Shown: positions 1-9,701, counted from the stretch's first letter. The stretch is 64,000 bases of DNA from an uncultured Syntrophomonadaceae bacterium (GCA_964506505.1 CAZDKY010000021.1:4010-68009); one strand, 5' to 3'. The notes: generated by a model from the sequence alone, not told the origin. Translations and numbers: made by a program.

Positions 1-840
1 CCGGAATATAACGATCAACACGCCAATTGTAATACCAAAAATTATTTTACCCTTTTCGGTAAAAGGACTGGTAACCCAGTCGGTAGCCATGAAGAATGAG
101 CCGAGCAGCAGCCCGCCGGTTACCAGGTGATAGAGCGGGTTGCCACCTGAGAGCAAAGTCAGAACCACTACCGTAGCCAGAATTGATACGGGTATCCTCC
201 AGCTGATATGTTTTTTATAAAGCAAATAAGCCGCGCCGATAAGAATCGCCAGGGGCGATACTTCTGACATGGCCCCTCCCGGAAAAGCCAGGAATAGCTG
301 GCCCAGCGGGGGCATTTCCAGGCCCATTTTCATCATGGCCAGCGGTGTGGCCTGGGTCATCACATCAATTGGGCCAAAGTAAACATTCAATGGCTCAAAC
401 CAGCTGTAAACAAAGGCAAAGAGCGGTGCCAGCAAAATCAGGGCCACTCTTCCGAAAAGAGCCGGGTTGAAACGGTTCCAGCCCAGGCCGCCAACCAGTT
501 CCTTGGCCACCCCTACAGCAAGAAAGGTAGCCAGCACACCCTGCCACCACGGCGTAGAAGCGGGGAACAACAGGGCAACAAAGAGACCGGTGAGCAGTGC
601 ACTCCAATCTCCAGGCCTTGCTTTCCTGTTCATCAGGTTCCTGAACAGAAGCTCGGTTAAAATAGCGGTAACCAGGCAGACGGCAATAAAGAATACCGCA
701 TAGAGCCTGAAAAAATATATGGCTACCAGCGTGACAGGTATCAGGGCAATAAAAACATCACGCATAGCTTTCGATATCGTCCCCTCATCTTTAATGTGCG
801 GGGACGACGATACTATGAAATTTCGGGCTTCATTCACCAC
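1..840 (-). CDS. rnfD: RnfD/RsxD family membrane subunit (runs off window start)
   Basis: Not in the ORF track. Manual translation from GTG at 840 (RBS GAGGAG) gives VNEARNFIVSSSPHIKDEGTISKAMRDVFIALIP..., with GGLGWNRFNPAL, DVMTQATPL and FFMATDWVTSP motifs typical of RnfD. Confidence 0.9.
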   Translation of the reverse strand, partial: MVNEARNFIVSSSPHIKDEGTISKAMRDVFIALIPVTLVAIYFFRLYAVFFIAVCLVTAILTELLFRNLMNRKARPGDWSALLTGLFVALLFPASTPWWQGVLATFLAVGVAKELVGGLGWNRFNPALFGRVALILLAPLFAFVYSWFEPLNVYFGPIDVMTQATPLAMMKMGLEMPPLGQLFLAFPGGAMSEVSPLAILIGAAYLLYKKHISWRIPVSILATVVVLTLLSGGNPLYHLVTGGLLLGSFFMATDWVTSPFTEKGKIIFGITIGVLIVIFR

Positions 841-867
841 TTATCTCCTCCTTTTCCCCACTTTCGC

Positions 868-2184
868 TTATTTCTTGCTCTGCATTTCGCGGATCAGCGG
901 CTTGGTCCGCTGAATTAACTGCACGATTGGCCGCTTGGAGGGACAAACATAGGCACAGATACCACACTCTATGCAGTCCAGGGCATTCCACTCGTCTGCT
1001 TCCTCGATCATTTTTGCTTCACAGAATATACTCAGCTGATTGGGATAAAGCAGCATCGGGCAGTGCTCCACACATTTACAACAGCGGACACAGTCATAGT
1101 ATTCCATGTCTTCGATGGCCATGTCCGGCGGCAGGACAATTACACCTGTTGTCCCTTTGACTATCGGAACATCAAGGTTCTGCTGCGCTTTTCCGGTCAT
1201 CGGTCCACCAATCACCACTTTGGCCGGCTCTTCCACTATGCCGCCGCATTCTTCAATCAGGTGGCCAATTGGAGTACCTATTTTTACCATCAGATTCTGA
1301 GGATCATTCAGGTTTTGACCGGTCACCGTGACCACTCTTTCGATCAGTGGCTTCTTATACCTGACCGCCTCGTAGATTGCCACACAGGTACCCACATTCT
1401 GGATAATTGCCCCCACATCAAAGGGTAAGCCCCCGGAAGGGATTTCCCGGTCGAGGGCCGCTTTAACAAGGTGTTTTTCCGAACCCTGCGGGTACTTGGT
1501 CGGCATTCTGAGCAGTACTATCTGGGAATTGGTATTTTTTTGTCGAACTGCTTCGATGGCGTCATCCTTATTGTCTTCAATGCAGAGATAGGCCTTATCC
1601 ACACTGAGCATCTTCATTAACAGCTCGATGCCCTGCAGCAGTTCCCCGGGTTTTTCCAGCATAAGGCGATGATCACAGGTTAAAAATGGTTCACATTCAC
1701 AACCGTTTATAACCAGAGCATCGATTTTTTTATCCGGTGGCGGGCTTAATTTAACTGCCGTCGGGAAAGCGGCACCACCCATCCCGACGATCCCCGCTTC
1801 TTTGATAGCCTTGCTCAGATCTTCTCTGGTCACGGTCTCAATATCGACGTCGGCAAGCTCAAGCTCATCCTGTTCCTCATCAACAGCAATGACAATGCTG
1901 TTCACCATCTGACCGGTTAAGTAAGCGCGGGGCTCAATTGCTGTAACCGTTCCTGAGAGGCTGGCATGGATAGGCGCACTGACAAATTTGTCAGTTTCAC
2001 CGATCTTTTGCCCGGCCTTCACTTTATCGCCCACTTTAACCAGCGGTTCATTGGGAGCACCGGTATGCTGAAGAAGCGGGATGACAAGCTCCCCGGGAAG
2101 AGATGCTTTTTTAATTTCTTTATGCTCGGTAAAGCTCTTATAGTGGGGGATACTGATCCCACCGGTAAATTTTTTCACTTCCAT
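868..2184 (-). CDS. rnfC: RnfC/RsxC NADH/FMN-binding Fe-S subunit
   Basis: GIVGMGGAAFPTAVK, NGCECEPFLTCD, KYPQGSEK, GGPMTG and two CxxCxxCxxxCP motifs. Confidence 0.95.
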   Translation of the reverse strand: MEVKKFTGGISIPHYKSFTEHKEIKKASLPGELVIPLLQHTGAPNEPLVKVGDKVKAGQKIGETDKFVSAPIHASLSGTVTAIEPRAYLTGQMVNSIVIAVDEEQDELELADVDIETVTREDLSKAIKEAGIVGMGGAAFPTAVKLSPPPDKKIDALVINGCECEPFLTCDHRLMLEKPGELLQGIELLMKMLSVDKAYLCIEDNKDDAIEAVRQKNTNSQIVLLRMPTKYPQGSEKHLVKAALDREIPSGGLPFDVGAIIQNVGTCVAIYEAVRYKKPLIERVVTVTGQNLNDPQNLMVKIGTPIGHLIEECGGIVEEPAKVVIGGPMTGKAQQNLDVPIVKGTTGVIVLPPDMAIEDMEYYDCVRCCKCVEHCPMLLYPNQLSIFCEAKMIEEADEWNALDCIECGICAYVCPSKRPIVQLIQRTKPLIREMQSKK

Positions 2185-2202
2185 TTGCTTTCACCCCCCG
2201 GT

Positions 2203-2988
2203 TTATTTAGTTTCGCTTTTGGCCTGCTCAATTTTCTTCGAATGTGAACGATTTACCCACAATCCGAAAGCTACCGCGATAATAACAAGCACGCGGAAGG
2301 GTTTAAAGAGAGCACTCCAAATACGGGTTTGTAGTGATACCTGCGGATCGACCGGCAAGCCGTACTTTTCCGGTTTATCGGCCAGGACATAGAGCATGGC
2401 CGTTCCATCTACCTCATCCAGGCCGTACATGGTAGCATTGGTTTTACCGGCCGCTTTGAGTTCTTCCACTCTACTCTGGGCCTGATCGATCAATTCACGG
2501 TAATCCCCAAACTGGATTGAACCTGTAGGACAGGCATTGGCACAGGCCGGCTCCAGGCCGGCATTGAGCCGGTCATAACAGAAAGTACACTTCTGCGCCT
2601 TATTGGTCAGCCGATCAAAACCGATCACGTTAAACGGACAGGCCGCCACGCAGTAGTTACAACCGATACACTTTACCGTGTCAATATTAACCGTCCCGAA
2701 TTCAGTGCGGTACAATGCTCCGGTGGGGCAGGCCTGCATGCAGGCTGCATCAGTGCAATGCATACAGCCCTGCTTGGACATGAGAAAACCTACTTTACCA
2801 TCTTCTTCCTCATGTTCCCTGTAGACCACCCTCATCCAGGTCTGGGCCGAAAAACGGGGCGGGTTTTCATAACTTCCTTCAAAGGTTGTCGCTTCTGCAG
2901 GCAGCTGGTTCCACTGCTTGCAAGCTACCTGGCAGGCACGGCAACCGATACACTTGGAGGCATCAATTAAACAGATTAGCTGAGCCAT
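2203..2988 (-). CDS. fdhB: Formate dehydrogenase Fe-S (beta) subunit, FdnH/HybA-like, with C-terminal membrane anchor
   Basis: CIGCRACQVACKQWN, four 4Fe-4S motifs, C-terminal hydrophobic helix. Confidence 0.9.
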   Translation of the reverse strand: MAQLICLIDASKCIGCRACQVACKQWNQLPAEATTFEGSYENPPRFSAQTWMRVVYREHEEEDGKVGFLMSKQGCMHCTDAACMQACPTGALYRTEFGTVNIDTVKCIGCNYCVAACPFNVIGFDRLTNKAQKCTFCYDRLNAGLEPACANACPTGSIQFGDYRELIDQAQSRVEELKAAGKTNATMYGLDEVDGTAMLYVLADKPEKYGLPVDPQVSLQTRIWSALFKPFRVLVIIAVAFGLWVNRSHSKKIEQAKSETK

Positions 2989-5900
2989 TTATCCTGCCCT
3001 CCTTATATTGCACAGGAATGCTTTTGATTCGGGGATAGCCGTATTGGCATCACCAACCGATGCCGTCAGGTCGTTGGCTACGGCACCGGTACTCATTCCC
3101 TTGAAACCCCAGTGCCAGGGCAATGCGACATAGTGTTTTTTCTCACCGTTGATGATCAGCGGTTTAAGACGCTTGGTAACACAAGCTTTTGCCTCTATAC
3201 TTTCCTGATTGCCATCCTTGAAGAGGCGCTTGCTTTCGATGGCCACGACGTCGCCATTGTTTATACCCAGTTCTGAAGCCAGTTCCTCGCTGATCTCGAT
3301 GAAAAGTTCCGGCATCAGCTCGTTCAACCAGGGGATATTACGGGTAACGATACCCGACTGGTAATGTTCAACAACCCGACAGGTTGTAATGATGTAGGGG
3401 TATCTTTCCCTCTCTTCATCGGTTTCCACGGTGTGATCTTCGTAGAAACGCTGGCTAACCGGGTTATAAGTAGCATTGGGATAGAACAGGTTGGGAACCA
3501 GGCTCTCCGCCGGCTCGTAGTGAGTAGGCATGGGCCCGTCTTTCAAGGCACTGTGTGAATAAAGCCTGCCCACACCTTCCGGCAGCATGATAAAGGGATT
3601 CTCCGTAGACTGTTCAAGAGTCCAGCTACCGGGAATATCGGGAATGTCGTTGCCAACCCACTTCTGCTGGATTTCATCCCACCATATAACGGGGGCATCA
3701 GGATTCCATGGTTTTCCTTCCAGGTTGGCAGAACAACGATTGTAAACAATGCGCCGGTTCAGGGGCCAGGCAAAAGACCAACCCAGGTTAGTGCCAATAC
3801 CGTCTTTTTCTCGATTCCGGTTCTTAGTAGCCGGTTGATCATAGTTGTTATAGTACCCGCTGTATAACCAGTTTCCGCAGGCCGTCGATCCGTCATCAGC
3901 CAGGCCTACAAAGTTGGTAACCAGTGAATCGTCAACCACCCGGTAACCGTTGATATCTTTACAAACCTTGACAATATCCACTTCACCGTCAGGACCGTCA
4001 TAATCCCAGAACATTTTTGTGATCTGTTCTGGAACAACGCCACCCTCTGCTTCATAGAGGGACTGCAGTCTCTTAAAAAGTTCATTAACAATCCACAGGT
4101 CTGATTTTGCTTCGCCCGGCGGATCCTGGCACTTCCAGGTCCATTGGATCCAGCGGCCGCTGTTGGCCTTGCTGCCTTCCCTTTCATAACCGGCCGCGGC
4201 TGGGAGGATAAAGACCTCGGTGTCAATTTCAGCCGGATCCATGCCGGGACCCTGCCAGAAAGAAGCAGTTTCGTTTTCAAAGAGATCTACTGCAACGAGC
4301 CACTTGAGGTTCTTCTGGTAGTTACGCTTGTTAGCGGCACTGGGACCGGATACGGCCGGGTTGTCAGCCCAGCAGATCATCCCTTCCACTTTTTTTTCTC
4401 CCATATCTTTATACAGGGCAATGTGAGAGTGATCACGCCCGTCCAGCTTCGGCATCCACTGATAACCGAACTCATTATCTGAAGTAGCGTTATCGCCATA
4501 GAAAGCCTTCAGGAGGCTGACAAAATACTTCGGCTTGTTACTCCACCACCCGGAGGCCGGGGTTTCTTTTACCAGGTAATCATCAAGAGTAGGATGAGTC
4601 GCCTGCTGGGGAGTAGACATGTAACCGGGAACAATGTGATAGAGTATACTCATATCTGTTGAACCCTGCACATTGGACTGCCCGCGCTGGGCATTCACTC
4701 CACCACCGGCAATTCCGATATTCCCCAGGAGCAGCTGGACAATGGCACAGGAACGGACATTCTGTGAACCGTGCGTGAACTGGGTGATACCCATGGCATA
4801 AAGCAGGTTGCCTGCTTTACCGGCTTCACCTGTGCTGCTGTAAAGCTCATAAGAAGCTTCCAGCGCTTCGGGATCGGCACCTGTTATCTTGCTCACATTG
4901 TCGATGGTGTACTTAGCATAATGCTTTTTCATTAACTGCAGAACACAGTTGGGATCCTGCAAGGTGGGATCCTTTAGCGGCTTGCCCTCTTCATCCTGCT
5001 GGTACTGCCATGTTTCGGTATTGTATTTCTTCGCACTGCGAGCAGGATCGTCTTCGTCTCCGGAAAAAAGTCCTGTTGCCTCATCAAATGAAAACTCTTC
5101 GTTAACAAGGTAAGATGCATTGGTGTAATTTTCTACATACTCCTTGTGATAACGTTCGTTGCTGAGGATATAGTTGATCATTCCGCCCAGGTAAGCAATA
5201 TTGGTCCCGGGGCGAATGGAAACGTGCAGATCAGCAACCGCTGCCGTTCTGGATATGCGGGGGTCGATTACAATTAACTTCGCTCCCCTGGTCTCCCGGG
5301 CCTTTTGGATCCATTTCATAGAAATAGGATGGTTCTCAGCTGTGTTCCCACCTATATTGATAAAAACATCGGTATGTTTATAATCAATCCAGTGGTTGGT
5401 CATGCAACCTCTCCCGAACGTGGCGCCGAGACCGGCGACCGTGCTCGAGTGTCAGAGGCGAGCACAGTGATCAATATTAATCACACCCATGGCCCGGGCC
5501 ATCTTGTGGAAGAGGTAATTTTCCTCGTTGGTACAGAAAGCACTGCCCAGCCAGGAAATGGCCTCGGTCCGGTTGACGGTAACCTGCCTGCCGTCTACAT
5601 TGACCGATTCAACATAAGTTTGATCACGCGTGTCTTTAATTTTTCTGGCGATCGTATCCAGAGCCCAGTCCCAGTCTTTTACTTCATAGCTGCTGCTACC
5701 CGGAGCCCTGTATAGCACGTGAGTCAAACGGTTCGGGTTAGGCTTCGGTTTTCCTTTCTCATCGTAAATATAAGAAATGTTGTAATGCGAGCTCCCTTTA
5801 CTGCAAAGGGTACCCTCATTAATGGGGTGGTCCGGATCTCCTTCAGCATTGACAATTACGCCGTCCCGGACATGACAAACCACACCACAGCCAACTCCGC

Positions 5901-6054
5901 AAAAAGTGCAAATTGTTGTATACTCCTTGGTATACTTAATGCGCAGCGGGTCAATGGTTGACGCAGAAGCCTTATTCAGGCCAACACTGGCCAGCGTTGC
6001 CGCAGCGGCAGTTGCGCCAGTCAATTTTAAAAAACTGCGTCGTGTTAATTGCAT
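2989..6054 (-). CDS. fdhA: Selenocysteine-containing, Tat-exported formate dehydrogenase alpha subunit (FdnG-type), about 1021 aa
   Basis: ORFs 5452..6054 and 2989..5403 are in frame across TGA 5452-5454, reading [28 protein letters not shown] (canonical Fdh Sec site). Tat motif TRRSFLK; CTFCGVGC cluster motif. Confidence 0.95.
5420..5451 (-). promoter_or_regulatory. Bacterial SECIS element of fdhA
   Basis: Hairpin CGCCG-GTCT-CGGCG downstream of the UGA, loop G at +20. Confidence 0.8.
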
Positions 6055-6068
6055 AAGAATTCCACCTC

Positions 6069-6968
6069 CTAGTCGTGTCTGTCTACTATTTCGCTCTGGT
6101 TAACCCACTCCAGGCCGGAGCCGGGAGTGAAACCTTCCCGCCTGGCCAGTAAATCATAAGGCAGAGTGGCAAGGTTGTGGATGGTTAAGATTTCTGCTCC
6201 ATCCATGTTTAATTTTCTCCCATCAAAGATCTTGTAATACTGGCAGCATTGGCGACAATAGTAAACCCTGCATGTTTCCATCCCTTCAACACTAAAATAA
6301 CCGAGTTCCTCTCGCTCTTCATTTCCGCAGTACGGGCATTTGACGCGGCTATACACCCAGCGGGTGCCACAGAGCCAGCATTCGAACTGTTTTGCGCCAT
6401 CACTGCTGCGAAGCATACCAAAATGAGGCTTTTCACCGCATAACGGGCAATTCCCTCCTTCCCAGATGTCAGTCCGCAAGACCTCACTTACCGGCTGTAG
6501 GTACTGCCGGTAAAAGGAAGATACTATTATCGAAAAAAGAAACGTGGCCATGTCCTGCTCCAGGACGTTTTCTTTGACCAGATCGTCTCTGAACTCCATG
6601 AACTCGTTTCTTTCCATTTTTTCTGGTTTTTCAGCCAGGAACCGGTCACTTGCTTCTTCTAAAACCTTCACAGTAGTTTTTAAAGTTGGATTCGTTTTGT
6701 TCATGGCTATACTAACTTTCTTTAGCATTCCGATGACAGCGCTGGTATCCAGCGGGGGATTGCAGTTAAGCGACTGGCCCTTCTGCAGGGTTTCGTATAC
6801 TTTCATTTCATCAAGCGGCGCTGCAGCTTCAATCGGGTTTTCCAGAATATACTCATTAAGAGCAGAATATGCCTTTTCGACAAAGGTAACTGCTTCGCTA
6901 AAATTGTCATAGAGGCGGATGCAGCGGTCAATTTCTTCCCTGTAATTATTGTGCGGCAGGATAGTCAA
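6069..6968 (-). CDS. fdhE: Formate dehydrogenase accessory protein FdhE
   Basis: CPLCG, CWLCGTRW, CPYCG, CRQC motifs; lies directly upstream of fdhA. Confidence 0.9.
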   Translation of the reverse strand: MTILPHNNYREEIDRCIRLYDNFSEAVTFVEKAYSALNEYILENPIEAAAPLDEMKVYETLQKGQSLNCNPPLDTSAVIGMLKKVSIAMNKTNPTLKTTVKVLEEASDRFLAEKPEKMERNEFMEFRDDLVKENVLEQDMATFLFSIIVSSFYRQYLQPVSEVLRTDIWEGGNCPLCGEKPHFGMLRSSDGAKQFECWLCGTRWVYSRVKCPYCGNEEREELGYFSVEGMETCRVYYCRQCCQYYKIFDGRKLNMDGAEILTIHNLATLPYDLLARREGFTPGSGLEWVNQSEIVDRHD

Positions 6969-7082: not shown

Positions 7083-7111
7083 ATTATGGCACATATCGTT
7101 TTCTGTGTCAA
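7083..7111 (-). promoter_or_regulatory. SigA promoter of the fdh-rnf operon
   Basis: TTGACA-17 bp-CATAAT with extended TG. Confidence 0.7.
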
Positions 7112-7404: not shown

Positions 7405-7827
7405 TTACTTCGTTAGTAGTTTCACATAATCTTGAATTTGATCACGGATAATTCGAAATTGATCCAGTATTTCCTCCTCCTTTCCCTCAGCCCTGGCCGG
7501 ATCTTCCAAAGGCCAGTGCCTCTTTTCAACTTTTACCGGGACAACCGGACAGTTTTCCCGGGCATCGCCGCACAGGGTAATCAACAGGTCAGTCTTATTC
7601 AATAGCGCACCAGTTATACGATCAGAAGTCTGATTGCTGATATCTATTCCCACTTCGTCCATTACCCTGACTGCCCGCGGATTCAGCCCAACAGGATTTA
7701 TACCGGCGCTAGAAACTGCGAAGCGATCCCCGCCGAGCTTTTTTAAAAACCCTTCGGCCATCTGGCTGCGAGCAGAATTGCCGGTGCAGAGGAAGAGTAC
7801 CCTTTTTGGGGCAGCTTTCTTATTCAT
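7405..7827 (-). CDS. arsC: Thioredoxin-dependent arsenate reductase (LMWP family)
   Basis: [34 protein letters not shown]. Confidence 0.9.
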
Positions 7828-7933
7828 TTGTTGATTCTCCCGTTTGGATATTTTTTAATTGTTACTATTCCATAATTAATTTGAGACAACATTACAAAAC
7901 TTCTTCGCTCAATCTCAAAAATAATGTGGCTTT

Positions 7934-8120
7934 TTACCTTACAACCTGCTTCATGGCCGGGAACCAGCTGCGGGTCTTCAGGCAGATCCGGACCAGGACC
8001 AGCATGATCGGCACTTCGATTAAAACCCCGACGACCGTGGACAGGGCCGCCCCTGAAGTGAGGCCGAAAATTGTCACCGCCGTAGCTATGGCCACCTCAA
8101 GATGGTTGCCGTCGCCTATA
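7934..8120 (-). pseudogene. acr3: C-terminal remnant of an Acr3 arsenite efflux pump
   Basis: Manual translation [54 protein letters not shown] matches the Acr3 C-terminus; no start codon or N-terminal part. Confidence 0.8.
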
Positions 8121-8226
8121 TTTCATGCCGGTATCAATACATTGGTCACCATACAGGAAATAGTTTATATACCCCATTTATTTTTAAATCCAAAACTGCT
8201 TTGTACAGACAGGTGCTGGTTAGCCT

Positions 8227-9414
8227 TTATAATCCCATGCTGCCAAAAATCATCCCCGATATTGTAGCCATAACAACAACCAGCGCAACGAAAACTATCG
8301 TTTTTTGGGTGCCGAGAACTGAACGTATTACAAGCATATTTGGCAAACTGAGGGCCGGTCCGGCGAGCAGCAGGGCGAGCGCCGGCCCCTTACCCATGCC
8401 AGCTCCAAGCAATCCCTGTAGAATGGGAATTTCTGTTAAGGTGGCGAAGTACATAAAAGCACCGACTACTGAGGCAACAAGGTTGGCCTGCAAACTGTTA
8501 CCACCAACCAGCGCTTCTATATAGCGAACCGGAATTAACCCGGCATCGCTTCCCGGACGCCCCATCAGCAAACCGGCTACCAGGACACCGGCAAAAAGCA
8601 GGGGCAGAATCTGCTTGGCAAAATCCCAGGTGGTATTAACCCAGTCCTTTCGTTCTTCCTGTTTAAACCACCGGGCGAGTATAAAGAAAAGGGCAACCAG
8701 TAAAGCTATTACTACCGGCCATTTTACCGCGTATATCATATTATAGAAACCAATTGGTTCAGCCGGTTTACCCCAGGTGGCAAAAATCAATATCAACACG
8801 AGGGTCAGGAAAAAGAGGATATTCTGCACCGGGCTGCGTGTTTCAGTCATATCTTCATCCAAACCAGCCATCTGTGAGGCAAGCCTTTTTTGATCATCTT
8901 CCCGATATAGAAAAGCCATAATCAGCCCGATCACCACTGCAAATACTATTGCACCAACTGCCCTGGCCATGCCAAGTTCCCAGCCCAGGACCCGTGCTGT
9001 TAAAACAATCGCCAGGATATTAATGGCTGGCCCTGAGTAAAGAAAGGCCACGGCCGGGCCAATACCTGCTCCACGACGGTAAATACCACTGAACAGGGGC
9101 AATACCGTGCAGGAGCAAACAGCCAGGATTATGCCGGAAACTGAGGCTACAGAATAGGCAACAATCCTGCTGGCACCGCTCCCAAAATACTTGATCACTG
9201 CACCCTGGGAAACAAAATTGGCAATAGCCCCGGCTATAAAGAATGCCGGGATCAGGCAGAATAAAACATGCTCCCGGGCATATTCCTGCAGCAGGTGAAA
9301 AGCTTCAATAATAGCCGTGCTTATCTGCGGACTGCCAAAAGGCACAAAATAGGCAGCGAGAAAAACGGCTACGATAACAATAAATTTTTGGTATTCTTTC
9401 ATGGACAGGTTCAA
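8227..9414 (-). CDS. DUF318/ArsP-family permease
   Basis: AVCSCTVLPLF, FLYSGPAIN, YFATLTEIP, LLAGPALSLP motifs; multiple TM segments. Confidence 0.85.
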   Translation of the reverse strand: MNLSMKEYQKFIVIVAVFLAAYFVPFGSPQISTAIIEAFHLLQEYAREHVLFCLIPAFFIAGAIANFVSQGAVIKYFGSGASRIVAYSVASVSGIILAVCSCTVLPLFSGIYRRGAGIGPAVAFLYSGPAINILAIVLTARVLGWELGMARAVGAIVFAVVIGLIMAFLYREDDQKRLASQMAGLDEDMTETRSPVQNILFFLTLVLILIFATWGKPAEPIGFYNMIYAVKWPVVIALLVALFFILARWFKQEERKDWVNTTWDFAKQILPLLFAGVLVAGLLMGRPGSDAGLIPVRYIEALVGGNSLQANLVASVVGAFMYFATLTEIPILQGLLGAGMGKGPALALLLAGPALSLPNMLVIRSVLGTQKTIVFVALVVVMATISGMIFGSMGL

Positions 9415-9461
9415 CTCCTCGATATAAATAAACTTGTTGGAATATTGTTTGTGTTAAATAA

Positions 9462-9701
9462 TTACAATTCTTCCTGGATCATTTTTTTTATTGCTTCAAG
9501 GCTCAGCACTTTACCGGAAGATTTAACCTTTTCATTAATAACAAGAGCCGGCGTCATCATCACATTATAGTCCATTATTTCATCCATATCCGTAACCTTC
9601 CTGACATCAGCGGCAACATTTAGTTCAGCCAGAGCATTTACTGTTTCCTTTTCCAGAGCCTGGCATTTGCTGCACCCGGTTCCCAATATTTTAATGATCA
9701 T
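9462..9701 (-). CDS. Small thioredoxin-like redox protein (MTH895/Thioredoxin_3 type)
   Basis: IKILGTGCSKC ... VMMTPALVIN. Confidence 0.85.
   Translation of the reverse strand: MIIKILGTGCSKCQALEKETVNALAELNVAADVRKVTDMDEIMDYNVMMTPALVINEKVKSSGKVLSLEAIKKMIQEEL

Follow-up and report, generated by a model that had tools for sequence, protein, structure and literature searches.

An RnfC-RnfD pair in an operon with an exported selenocysteine formate dehydrogenase: a recurrent gene combination and a possible transmembrane NAD(H) port

The stretch of DNA analysed here (the window) is 64,000 nucleotides (nt) of one contig (G000:C21:4010-68009) in the genome of an uncultured Syntrophomonadaceae bacterium, an assembly of 1.82 Mb in 70 contigs that is 94% complete. 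At its left end, five genes run head to tail on the minus strand in the order fdhE, fdhA, fdhB, rnfC, rnfD (Table 1), separated, in that order, by gaps of 14, 0, 18 and 27 nt; a GGAGG-like ribosome-binding site stands before every one of the five. An earlier reading made from the sequence alone (the sequence-only reading) had described a selenocysteine-containing formate dehydrogenase exported by the twin-arginine translocation (Tat) pathway, with a beta subunit ending in a C-terminal transmembrane segment, encoded on one strand with rnfC and rnfD, with gaps of 0-27 nt and with no cytochrome b gene after fdhB. All of this is confirmed; the operon contains no cytochrome b gene. The same reading had pointed to the sequence left of the window as a place where rnfG, rnfE, rnfA or rnfB might lie. 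In those 4 kb (locus L001), rnfD is completed at 326 amino acids (aa) and ends at C21:3869, and none of the four genes follows it. Beyond rnfD come a gap of 290 nt and two large, convergent genes on the opposite strand (G000:C21:86-3579), which encode Proton_antipo_M (Mrp/Nuo-type) antiporter subunits; eight near relatives share this layout, observed there as antisense frames. Upstream of fdhE, a sigma-70-like promoter candidate matches 11 of 12 hexamer positions and is the best minus-strand site of the region, its function being predicted from a consensus match only; the best promoter-like site before rnfC matches merely 9 of 12. The operon is closed: rnfD is its terminal gene, convergent genes lie beyond, and a strong promoter-like site is present only before fdhE.

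Table 1. Features of the fdh-rnfCD operon and of two related clusters. Positions refer to the window unless a locus is named.
Feature	Position	Strand	Details
rnfD paralogue, fdh/FeS-linked clade	1..840	-	first 280 of 326 codons in window; remaining 138 nt and stop codon to the left
rnfC paralogue, predicted cytoplasmic NADH/FMN + 2x[4Fe-4S] subunit	868..2184	-	438 aa
fdhB, FdnH-like beta subunit	2203..2988	-	261 aa; four [4Fe-4S] cluster pattern; without own signal peptide
Predicted C-terminal membrane helix of FdhB	2248..2322 (residues 223-247)	-	sole hydrophobic stretch
fdhA, formate dehydrogenase-N type catalytic subunit	2989..6054	-	1021 aa; Tat signal
In-frame TGA, selenocysteine U201 of FdhA	5452..5454	-	single TGA; context CARL-U-HSST
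Tat signal of FdhA	5962-6054 (about residues 1-31)	-	N-terminus MQLTRRSFLK; PF10518 (TAT_signal)
fdhE-like accessory gene	6069..6968	-	299 aa; Cys-rich C-terminal half
Sigma-70-like promoter candidate	7083..7111 (= L001 11120..11092)	-	TTGACA, 17 nt, CATAAT with TG; about 115 nt upstream of fdhE
Hydrogenase-type cluster, locus L098	L098 9055-13297		
Hydrogenase-type cluster, locus L103	L103 5790-9415		

The formate dehydrogenase genes encode an alpha subunit and an FdnH-like beta subunit. FdhA scores 1146.6 bits against TIGR01553 (cut-off 814.2) and contains the domains Molybdop_Fe4S4, Molybdopterin and Molydop_binding; TAT_signal matches residues 2-22 with 24.6 bits against a cut-off of 22.7. 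The selenocysteine or cysteine expected at the active site of a Tat-exported alpha subunit with a molybdenum or tungsten bis-pyranopterin guanine dinucleotide (Mo/W-bisPGD) cofactor is here U201, directly before a His, and homologous fdhA genes at three related loci (L046, L047 and L048) are broken at the same spot as the TGA, into frames of about 200 and about 800 aa. A hairpin 3' of the TGA was considered as a selenocysteine insertion sequence and rejected: its energy is no better than that of shuffled sequence (z -1.3), and we do not count it as evidence. The 16 Cys of FdhB, a number sufficient for four [4Fe-4S] clusters, do not vary among 27 homologues. It falls under the cut-offs of two family models (242.6 bits against TIGR01582, cut-off 334.7; 149 bits against the HybA model NF008134), and its nearest solved chain is E. 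coli FdnH (1kqf_B, 235 bits over residues 2-243). Windows of 19 residues with a mean Kyte-Doolittle value above 1.6 start at residues 223-228 only. Within this predicted helix, P230 and R232 are invariant in the 27 homologues, and N246 is present in at least 90% of them. FdhE is a weak match to its family (59.5 bits against TIGR01562, cut-off 187.65), scoring just under the cut-offs for FdhE_central and FdhE_C (PF24859, PF24860); an FdhE-like gene also stands first in the commonest gene order of related loci.

RnfC and RnfD are clear members of their families. RnfC scores 537.7 bits against TIGR01945 (cut-off 245.95) and 441.8 bits against RnfC of a solved Rnf complex (7zc6_C); it combines Complex1_51K (170 bits), RnfC_N and SLBB domains with two CxxCxxCxxxCP motifs, at residues 365 and 404. 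RnfD, scored on the partial protein, reaches 236.1 bits against TIGR01946 (cut-off 207.05), and its match to 7zc6_D is 245 bits. PF03116 is its only domain, with no fused NAD-binding domain, and RnfC is encoded by a separate gene. N125, E193 and D254 of RnfD align with Asn124, Glu185 and Asp248 of 7zc6_D. The protein also has the flavinylation motif A-T165-P-L, whose Thr we take, from work on V. cholerae RnfD, to be the residue that carries flavin mononucleotide (FMN). All four residues (T165, N125, E193 and D254) are invariant in 27 RnfD sequences encoded, like this one, next to genes for an exported iron-sulfur (FeS) protein, which we call linked. Linked RnfD proteins keep most residues that are invariant in canonical RnfD and have invariant residues of their own, for example in GLGW and MATDW.

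A separate, complete rnfCDGEAB operon, another possibility raised by the sequence-only reading, is present in the same genome on contig C38, the only place where rnfG, rnfE, rnfA and rnfB occur. The rnfCD genes of the fdh operon are therefore an extra, diverged pair, 40% (RnfD) and 47% (RnfC) identical to their canonical counterparts. Downstream of the canonical rnfB, C38 carries genes for small mrp-like subunits (L014 7595-10288). The genome gave no match to cytochrome b of the FdnI/Ni_hydr_CYTB type (PF01292) or to NrfD (PF03916), an absence that is unproven at 94% completeness. It contains two ApbE flavin transferase genes and gave no match to a FocA-type formate channel.

The association of rnfCD with formate dehydrogenase genes recurs widely. 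An RnfC search of 401 genomes of the phylum found a match in 223, and we examined the 29 best foreign loci. At seven, RnfD is closer to the linked copy (48-58% identity) than to the canonical one (35-45%), and at these seven an FdhB-like or FdhA gene adjoins rnfCD. The other 22 are canonical by RnfD identity, with RnfG found in 18 by tblastn and in two more by blastp. Canonical RnfC copies are up to 48-55% identical to linked RnfC, an overlap that rules out RnfC alone as a marker of the clade; RnfD does separate the two types. When extended, the linked loci read fdhE-A-B-rnfC-D in G209 and G085, rnfC-D-fdhA-B in G371 and rnfC-D-fdhB in G294. G085 carries two linked rnfCD pairs in addition to two canonical rnf operons, each with its own rnfCD. 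One canonical-type operon, in G196 (L053 5643-10248, on contig C9), has the order rnfC-D-E-A-B, with no space for rnfG between rnfD and rnfE.

We then used two motifs of the linked clade to search species-representative genomes, which returned 571 pattern matches and 518 confirmed relatives, and the best 79 loci were kept. RnfC is encoded directly upstream of RnfD at 66 of the 67 loci whose upstream flank measures 1.4 kb or more, L113 being the exception. Where at least 5.5 kb upstream and at least 4.5 kb downstream were available, an FdhB-like gene was always found (34 of 34 loci) and fdhA nearly so (30 of 34). No other gene is conserved beside this core across related loci. By tblastn, none of the 79 linked loci has rnfG, rnfE, rnfA or rnfB; a poorly conserved RnfG could escape tblastn, and RnfA and RnfE would not, because they are more than 50% identical between canonical operons. 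RnfG, which the sequence-only reading had considered as a possible component, is absent from all linked clusters.

Synteny of fdhAB with rnfCD, which that reading had asked about, is strongly conserved, with the genes in four different orders. The order of the window, fdhE-A-B-rnfC-D, occurs at 24 loci, with three more that have extra fdh genes and ten that are cut within fdhA. The others are rnfC-D-fdhA-B (seven loci and three cut), rnfC-D-fdhB (nine loci) and fdhA-fdhE-rnfC-D-fdhB (three loci and one cut). In two of the four orders fdhB remains adjacent to rnfD while fdhA is apart or absent; L045, L121 and L122, for example, have rnfC-rnfD-fdhB without an adjoining fdhA. Some loci carry additional copies: at L064 (9484-13344) a second fdhA-fdhB pair lies immediately 3' of rnfD, and L125 (4864-9285) has a second fdhA-fdhB-rnfD set without rnfC. 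A complete canonical rnfCDGEAB set downstream with its own promoter, an FdnI partner elsewhere and a lack of conserved synteny had together been named as the finding that would speak against a formate dehydrogenase wired to RnfCD; what we find is a terminal rnfD, no FdnI match in the genome and synteny that holds across the loci.

The linked loci carry the taxon labels Syntrophomonadaceae, Dethiobacteria, Tindallia, Alkaliphilus and Halobacteroidaceae, and the module is also present in the cultured strains Anoxynatronum buryatiense Su22 and A. sibiricum Z-7981 (L085 and L087), both with the complete fdhE-A-B-rnfC-D set. It also occurs in metagenome-assembled genomes (MAGs) labelled Dehalococcoidia (L062, L063, L065, L073 and L102), Desulfovibrio or Desulfovibrionaceae (L098 and L108), Thioalkalivibrio (L097) and Hydrogenedentota (L066). 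The RnfD sequences of these MAGs nest among those of Bacillota, so gene transfer or mis-binning is possible.

Phylogenetic analysis places the linked RnfD proteins together. In a tree of 36 sequences, which left out seven short loci that duplicate extended or identical ones and matches with 200 or fewer aligned residues, ten linked copies split from 26 canonical ones with an SH-aLRT support of 100. A FastTree analysis of 95 sequences separates 87 linked copies from eight hand-picked canonical ones, again with a support of 100, and contains two large subclades that track gene order. Across 149 genomes of the window's class, RnfD identities are bimodal, at 52% or above or at 47% or below. Counting a genome as linked when its best E-value was at most 1e-100, or when a contig-end fragment was at least 58% identical, we find, by a hand count, linked-type RnfD in about 78 of the 149 genomes and in 54 of 73 in the window's family. 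On these sequence comparisons, the RnfD of FeS-linked clusters is a clade of its own, deep and separate from canonical RnfD.

The catalytic partner is not always a formate dehydrogenase. This enzyme accompanies rnfCD at most linked loci, a periplasmic [NiFe] hydrogenase does so at six and another molybdoenzyme at one. At the six (L098, L103, L104, L110, L113 and L118), rnfD is followed by a gene for a HybA-like four-cluster protein of 293-299 aa with its own Tat-like signal and then by genes for the small and large subunits of a [NiFe] hydrogenase and, where scanned, a maturation protease, with hypA/hypB-like genes after the protease. These assignments come from Pfam at L098 and L103 and from tblastn at all six. 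L103 overlaps L123 on one contig, which places a hydrogenase-type and a formate dehydrogenase-type rnfCD cluster in tandem. At L054 (561-6465), genes for a NarJ/TorD-like chaperone, a 751-aa Tat molybdoenzyme and an FeS subunit precede rnfC-rnfD, and at L049 (7633-10883) and L052 a lone FeS protein gene with a Tat signal does so, with no catalytic gene nearby. Because the catalytic partner varies, the constant unit, as judged from gene content, is RnfC, RnfD and an anchored four-cluster protein.

What might this unit do? We think it likely that exported enzymes are joined to NAD(H) across the membrane by a port made of RnfC, RnfD and the anchored FeS subunit, and that in the window the whole is a reversible formate:NAD+ oxidoreductase. 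FdhA and FdhB would lie on the outer face of the membrane, FdhA exported by the Tat pathway with its selenocysteine and FdhB held by its C-terminal helix. Their membrane partner would be a specialised RnfD instead of a cytochrome b, with RnfC on the cytoplasmic side. In the C. tetanomorphum Rnf complex, according to the sections of the published account that bear on this point, electrons pass from the FMN of RnfG to that of RnfD (less than 5 A away), then over 7.7 A to riboflavin and onward through the pair of RnfC clusters and the FMN of RnfC to NAD+, and Na+ is proposed to travel the opposite way inside RnfD past Asn124, Glu185 and Asp248 (PMC9588780). Because of this published route and the residues retained in RnfD, we propose that FdhB takes the place of RnfG as outer donor or acceptor. 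Electrons from formate would then reach the Mo/W cofactor, the [4Fe-4S] cluster of FdhA, the four clusters of FdhB and the covalent FMN of RnfD near the outer face; from there they would continue through riboflavin in RnfD, the two [4Fe-4S] clusters of RnfC and the FMN of RnfC to NAD+. The hybrid FdhAB-RnfCD formate:NAD+ oxidoreductase proposed by the sequence-only reading is supported as far as genomics reaches.

Such an enzyme would be reversible and electrogenic, and it might move Na+ or H+ as well; ion coupling by the linked RnfD is possible because the proposed flavin and Na+-path residues are retained. The midpoint potentials are about -420 to -430 mV for CO2/formate, about -420 mV for H2 and about -320 mV for NAD+/NADH. 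With these values, inward electron flow would be exergonic by roughly 110 mV per electron but would run against the membrane potential, whereas outward flow would be aided by it. In the outward direction, NADH would reduce CO2 to formate outside the cell, with the uphill step paid for by the membrane potential and perhaps by an influx of Na+ or H+ through RnfD. NADH-driven formate production outside the cell would suit interspecies formate transfer. The port probably links cytoplasmic NADH to outside formate without quinones or cytochromes. A broader proposal, to which we would give slightly less than an even chance, is that the unit is a general, possibly Na+- or H+-translocating NAD(H) port that takes interchangeable exported formate dehydrogenases, [NiFe] hydrogenases and other molybdoenzymes, and so represents a respiratory complex family in its own right. 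From these data we infer physical contact between the proteins, the path and direction of electron flow, coupling to ions and a part in syntrophy; contact between FdhB and RnfD is suggested by gene linkage and a weak co-fold.

The co-fold, a check put forward with the sequence-only reading, gives weak support. RnfD (with a 27-row alignment) and FdhB gave an ipSAE of 0.42 (runs of 0.45, 0.42 and 0.41), and the best of three controls gave 0.00. The mark that this pair passed was reached by 58 of 80 solved complexes and by 2 of 110 mismatched pairs. The partner pLDDT is 80-81 and the runs share at least 75% of their contacts; no interface was returned. Scores of 0.60 or less were obtained for only seven of the 80 solved complexes and for both passing mismatches. 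The model thus passes weakly, and we consider that it adds little to the genomic linkage.

Several observations weigh against a self-contained FdhAB-RnfCD complex. A co-fold pass of this weak kind misleads in more cases than not, except where the guess was already a likely one. In the C. tetanomorphum structure, as described in the same portion of that report, the FMN of RnfD is fully encapsulated and is reached by the mobile flavin of RnfG (PMC9588780), which bears on how closely a cluster of FdhB could approach it. The groups in our trees were set according to gene context, and sampling followed similarity to the query. The case for complex formation between FdhAB and RnfCD is a genomic one, not a biochemical or structural one. 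One UbiA-family gene is present in the genome, so quinones are possible. Finally, RnfA/E (PF02508) is encoded in 11 of 15 cluster-bearing genomes tested, including all five checked in the window's class, and also in the window's genome, G085, G041 and G196; borrowing of RnfGEAB by the linked pair is therefore possible. The four genomes without a match are four of the five Dehalococcoidia-labelled MAGs; their completeness is unknown, they are kin and their cluster nests among those of Bacillota, so that mis-binning is possible.

One alternative draws on this last set of observations. Linked RnfC and RnfD could be alternative subunits that assemble with canonical RnfG, RnfE, RnfA and RnfB, and FdhAB would then exchange electrons with a full Rnf complex, for instance via RnfG, as part of a formate-ferredoxin-NAD hub. 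The wide co-occurrence of RnfA/E and the retention in linked RnfD of most canonical-invariant residues are what such an assembly would lead one to expect. Nevertheless, we regard it as unlikely: not one of the 79 loci has rnfG, rnfE, rnfA or rnfB in or beside the cluster, the linked RnfD forms a deep, separate clade with its own invariant residues, the four Dehalococcoidia-labelled MAGs have the cluster and no RnfA/E match, and in G085 the canonical operons already have rnfCD genes of their own beside the two linked pairs. The RnfA/E survey of the 15 genomes leans towards a linked pair that is autonomous of canonical Rnf. We consider it very unlikely that the genes are merely co-regulated neighbours, with FdhAB donating to quinone via an unrecognised protein, to an extracellular acceptor or to a partner cell and RnfCD doing an unrelated job: the weak fold test for contact between FdhB and RnfD, the single UbiA-family prenyltransferase gene and the resemblance of FdhB to FdnH, which normally docks on a cytochrome b, would fit such an arrangement, but the linkage persists through four gene orders and several phylum-level labels, the FeS subunit adjoins rnfD even where fdhA sits elsewhere, the 94%-complete genome has no cytochrome b or NrfD match, and both proteins would be orphans, RnfD lacking a partner in the periplasm and the anchored FdhB lacking one in the membrane.

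Other genes in the genome and the window deserve brief mention. Two more fdhA-like genes, each with one in-frame TGA, lie at G000:C3:110604-112622 and G000:C41:10480-12543. Neither matches the N-terminal signal part of the model, and both look cytoplasmic. Because a NuoF-like Complex1_51K gene (C41:14238) lies close by, the copy on C41 may encode a formate dehydrogenase of the cytoplasm, either NAD-linked or bifurcating. On the minus strand of the window (7405-9701), immediately upstream of the promoter candidate, are genes for a low-molecular-weight phosphatase with an ArsC-like fold, an ArsP_1 permease and a thioredoxin-like protein. They are unrelated to the fdh operon and may be an arsenic-related set.

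A long-standing question in bioenergetics is how Gram-positive syntrophs and alkaliphilic anaerobes pass electrons from NADH to formate or H2 outside the cell; the usual answers require quinones, cytochromes or confurcation with ferredoxin. A half-Rnf mounted on an exported formate dehydrogenase or hydrogenase would, if our proposal is correct, be a direct route driven by the membrane potential or an ion gradient; running in the opposite direction, it would conserve energy from formate or H2. If the broader proposal holds, it could be the main route between NADH and external formate or H2 in anaerobes that have few quinones and cytochromes or none, a group likely to include many syntrophs. The module is common, as the survey of the class and the 518 relatives among species-representative genomes indicate. 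Its occurrence in cultured Anoxynatronum strains makes the idea testable at the bench.

A literature search found no characterisation of the fdh-RnfCD combination beyond one sentence in a preprint, and nothing on hydrogenase-RnfCD clusters. That preprint (bioRxiv 10.1101/2025.07.15.664484), in the portion available to us, names an 'FdhAH-RnfCD complex' in one sentence and a figure legend for one Natronincolaceae MAG, as a membrane-bound, NADH-using, formate-making complex in a putative syntrophic acetate oxidiser, and reports detection of proteins of its formate dehydrogenase complexes. The composition and role proposed there are the same as ours; that portion of the text has nothing on missing subunits, an RnfD clade, distribution, or hydrogenase and other variants. 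For 'Ca. Syntrophonatronum acetioxidans', the passages available from Timmers et al. 2018 (PMC6295475) name, of the Rnf subunits, RnfC, RnfD and RnfG alone, together with a Tat formate dehydrogenase, and do not link them. The system is a widespread, uncharacterised combination of known modules.

E. coli FdnGHI and FdoGHI share with the operon of the window a Tat-exported selenocysteine alpha subunit that scores above the TIGR01553 cut-off, a beta subunit with Cys for four clusters and a predicted C-terminal helix, and an FdhE-like accessory gene. Unlike them, the operon described here has no gene for a gamma subunit (the di-haem cytochrome b), nor was one found in the genome; its beta subunit stays under the family cut-off, and its presumed acceptor is NAD+ via RnfCD, not quinone. 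Hydrogenase 2 (HybOABC), whose HybA subunit is exported by the Tat pathway, carries four clusters and has a membrane anchor, resembles the six related loci where a HybA-like Tat FeS protein and [NiFe] subunits follow rnfD. There, RnfD and RnfC stand in place of the integral membrane partner HybB, a member of the NrfD family.

The likeness to the Rnf complex RnfABCDEG (solved for C. tetanomorphum, 7zc6; A. woodii, 9eri; and A. vinelandii, 8ahx) is one of parts: RnfC and RnfD are clear homologues, the flavinylation Thr and ion-path residues are retained, and our proposed route between the RnfD flavin and NAD+ is that of the second half of Rnf as published. The linked clusters differ in having no RnfA, RnfB, RnfE or RnfG, in an RnfD that belongs to a separate clade, and in what appears to be replacement of the ferredoxin entry half by an exported enzyme with an FdnH- or HybA-like FeS subunit. 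A precedent in concept is provided by the two-subunit NQR/RNF-like systems (Meheust et al. 2021, PMC8238504; Huang et al. 2024, PMC11334425), in which half of an Nqr or Rnf complex carries electrons in one direction between NAD(P)H in the cytosol and a redox partner outside it. As far as the consulted portions of those two papers describe them, these are different systems: an NqrB/RnfD-like domain is fused to an NqrF-type NAD domain (PF00175), whereas here RnfD is unfused and RnfC is the NADH subunit, and their partner is a flavinylated FMN-binding protein and their membrane domain has no flavinylation site, whereas here the partner is an FeS protein and RnfD retains the Thr.

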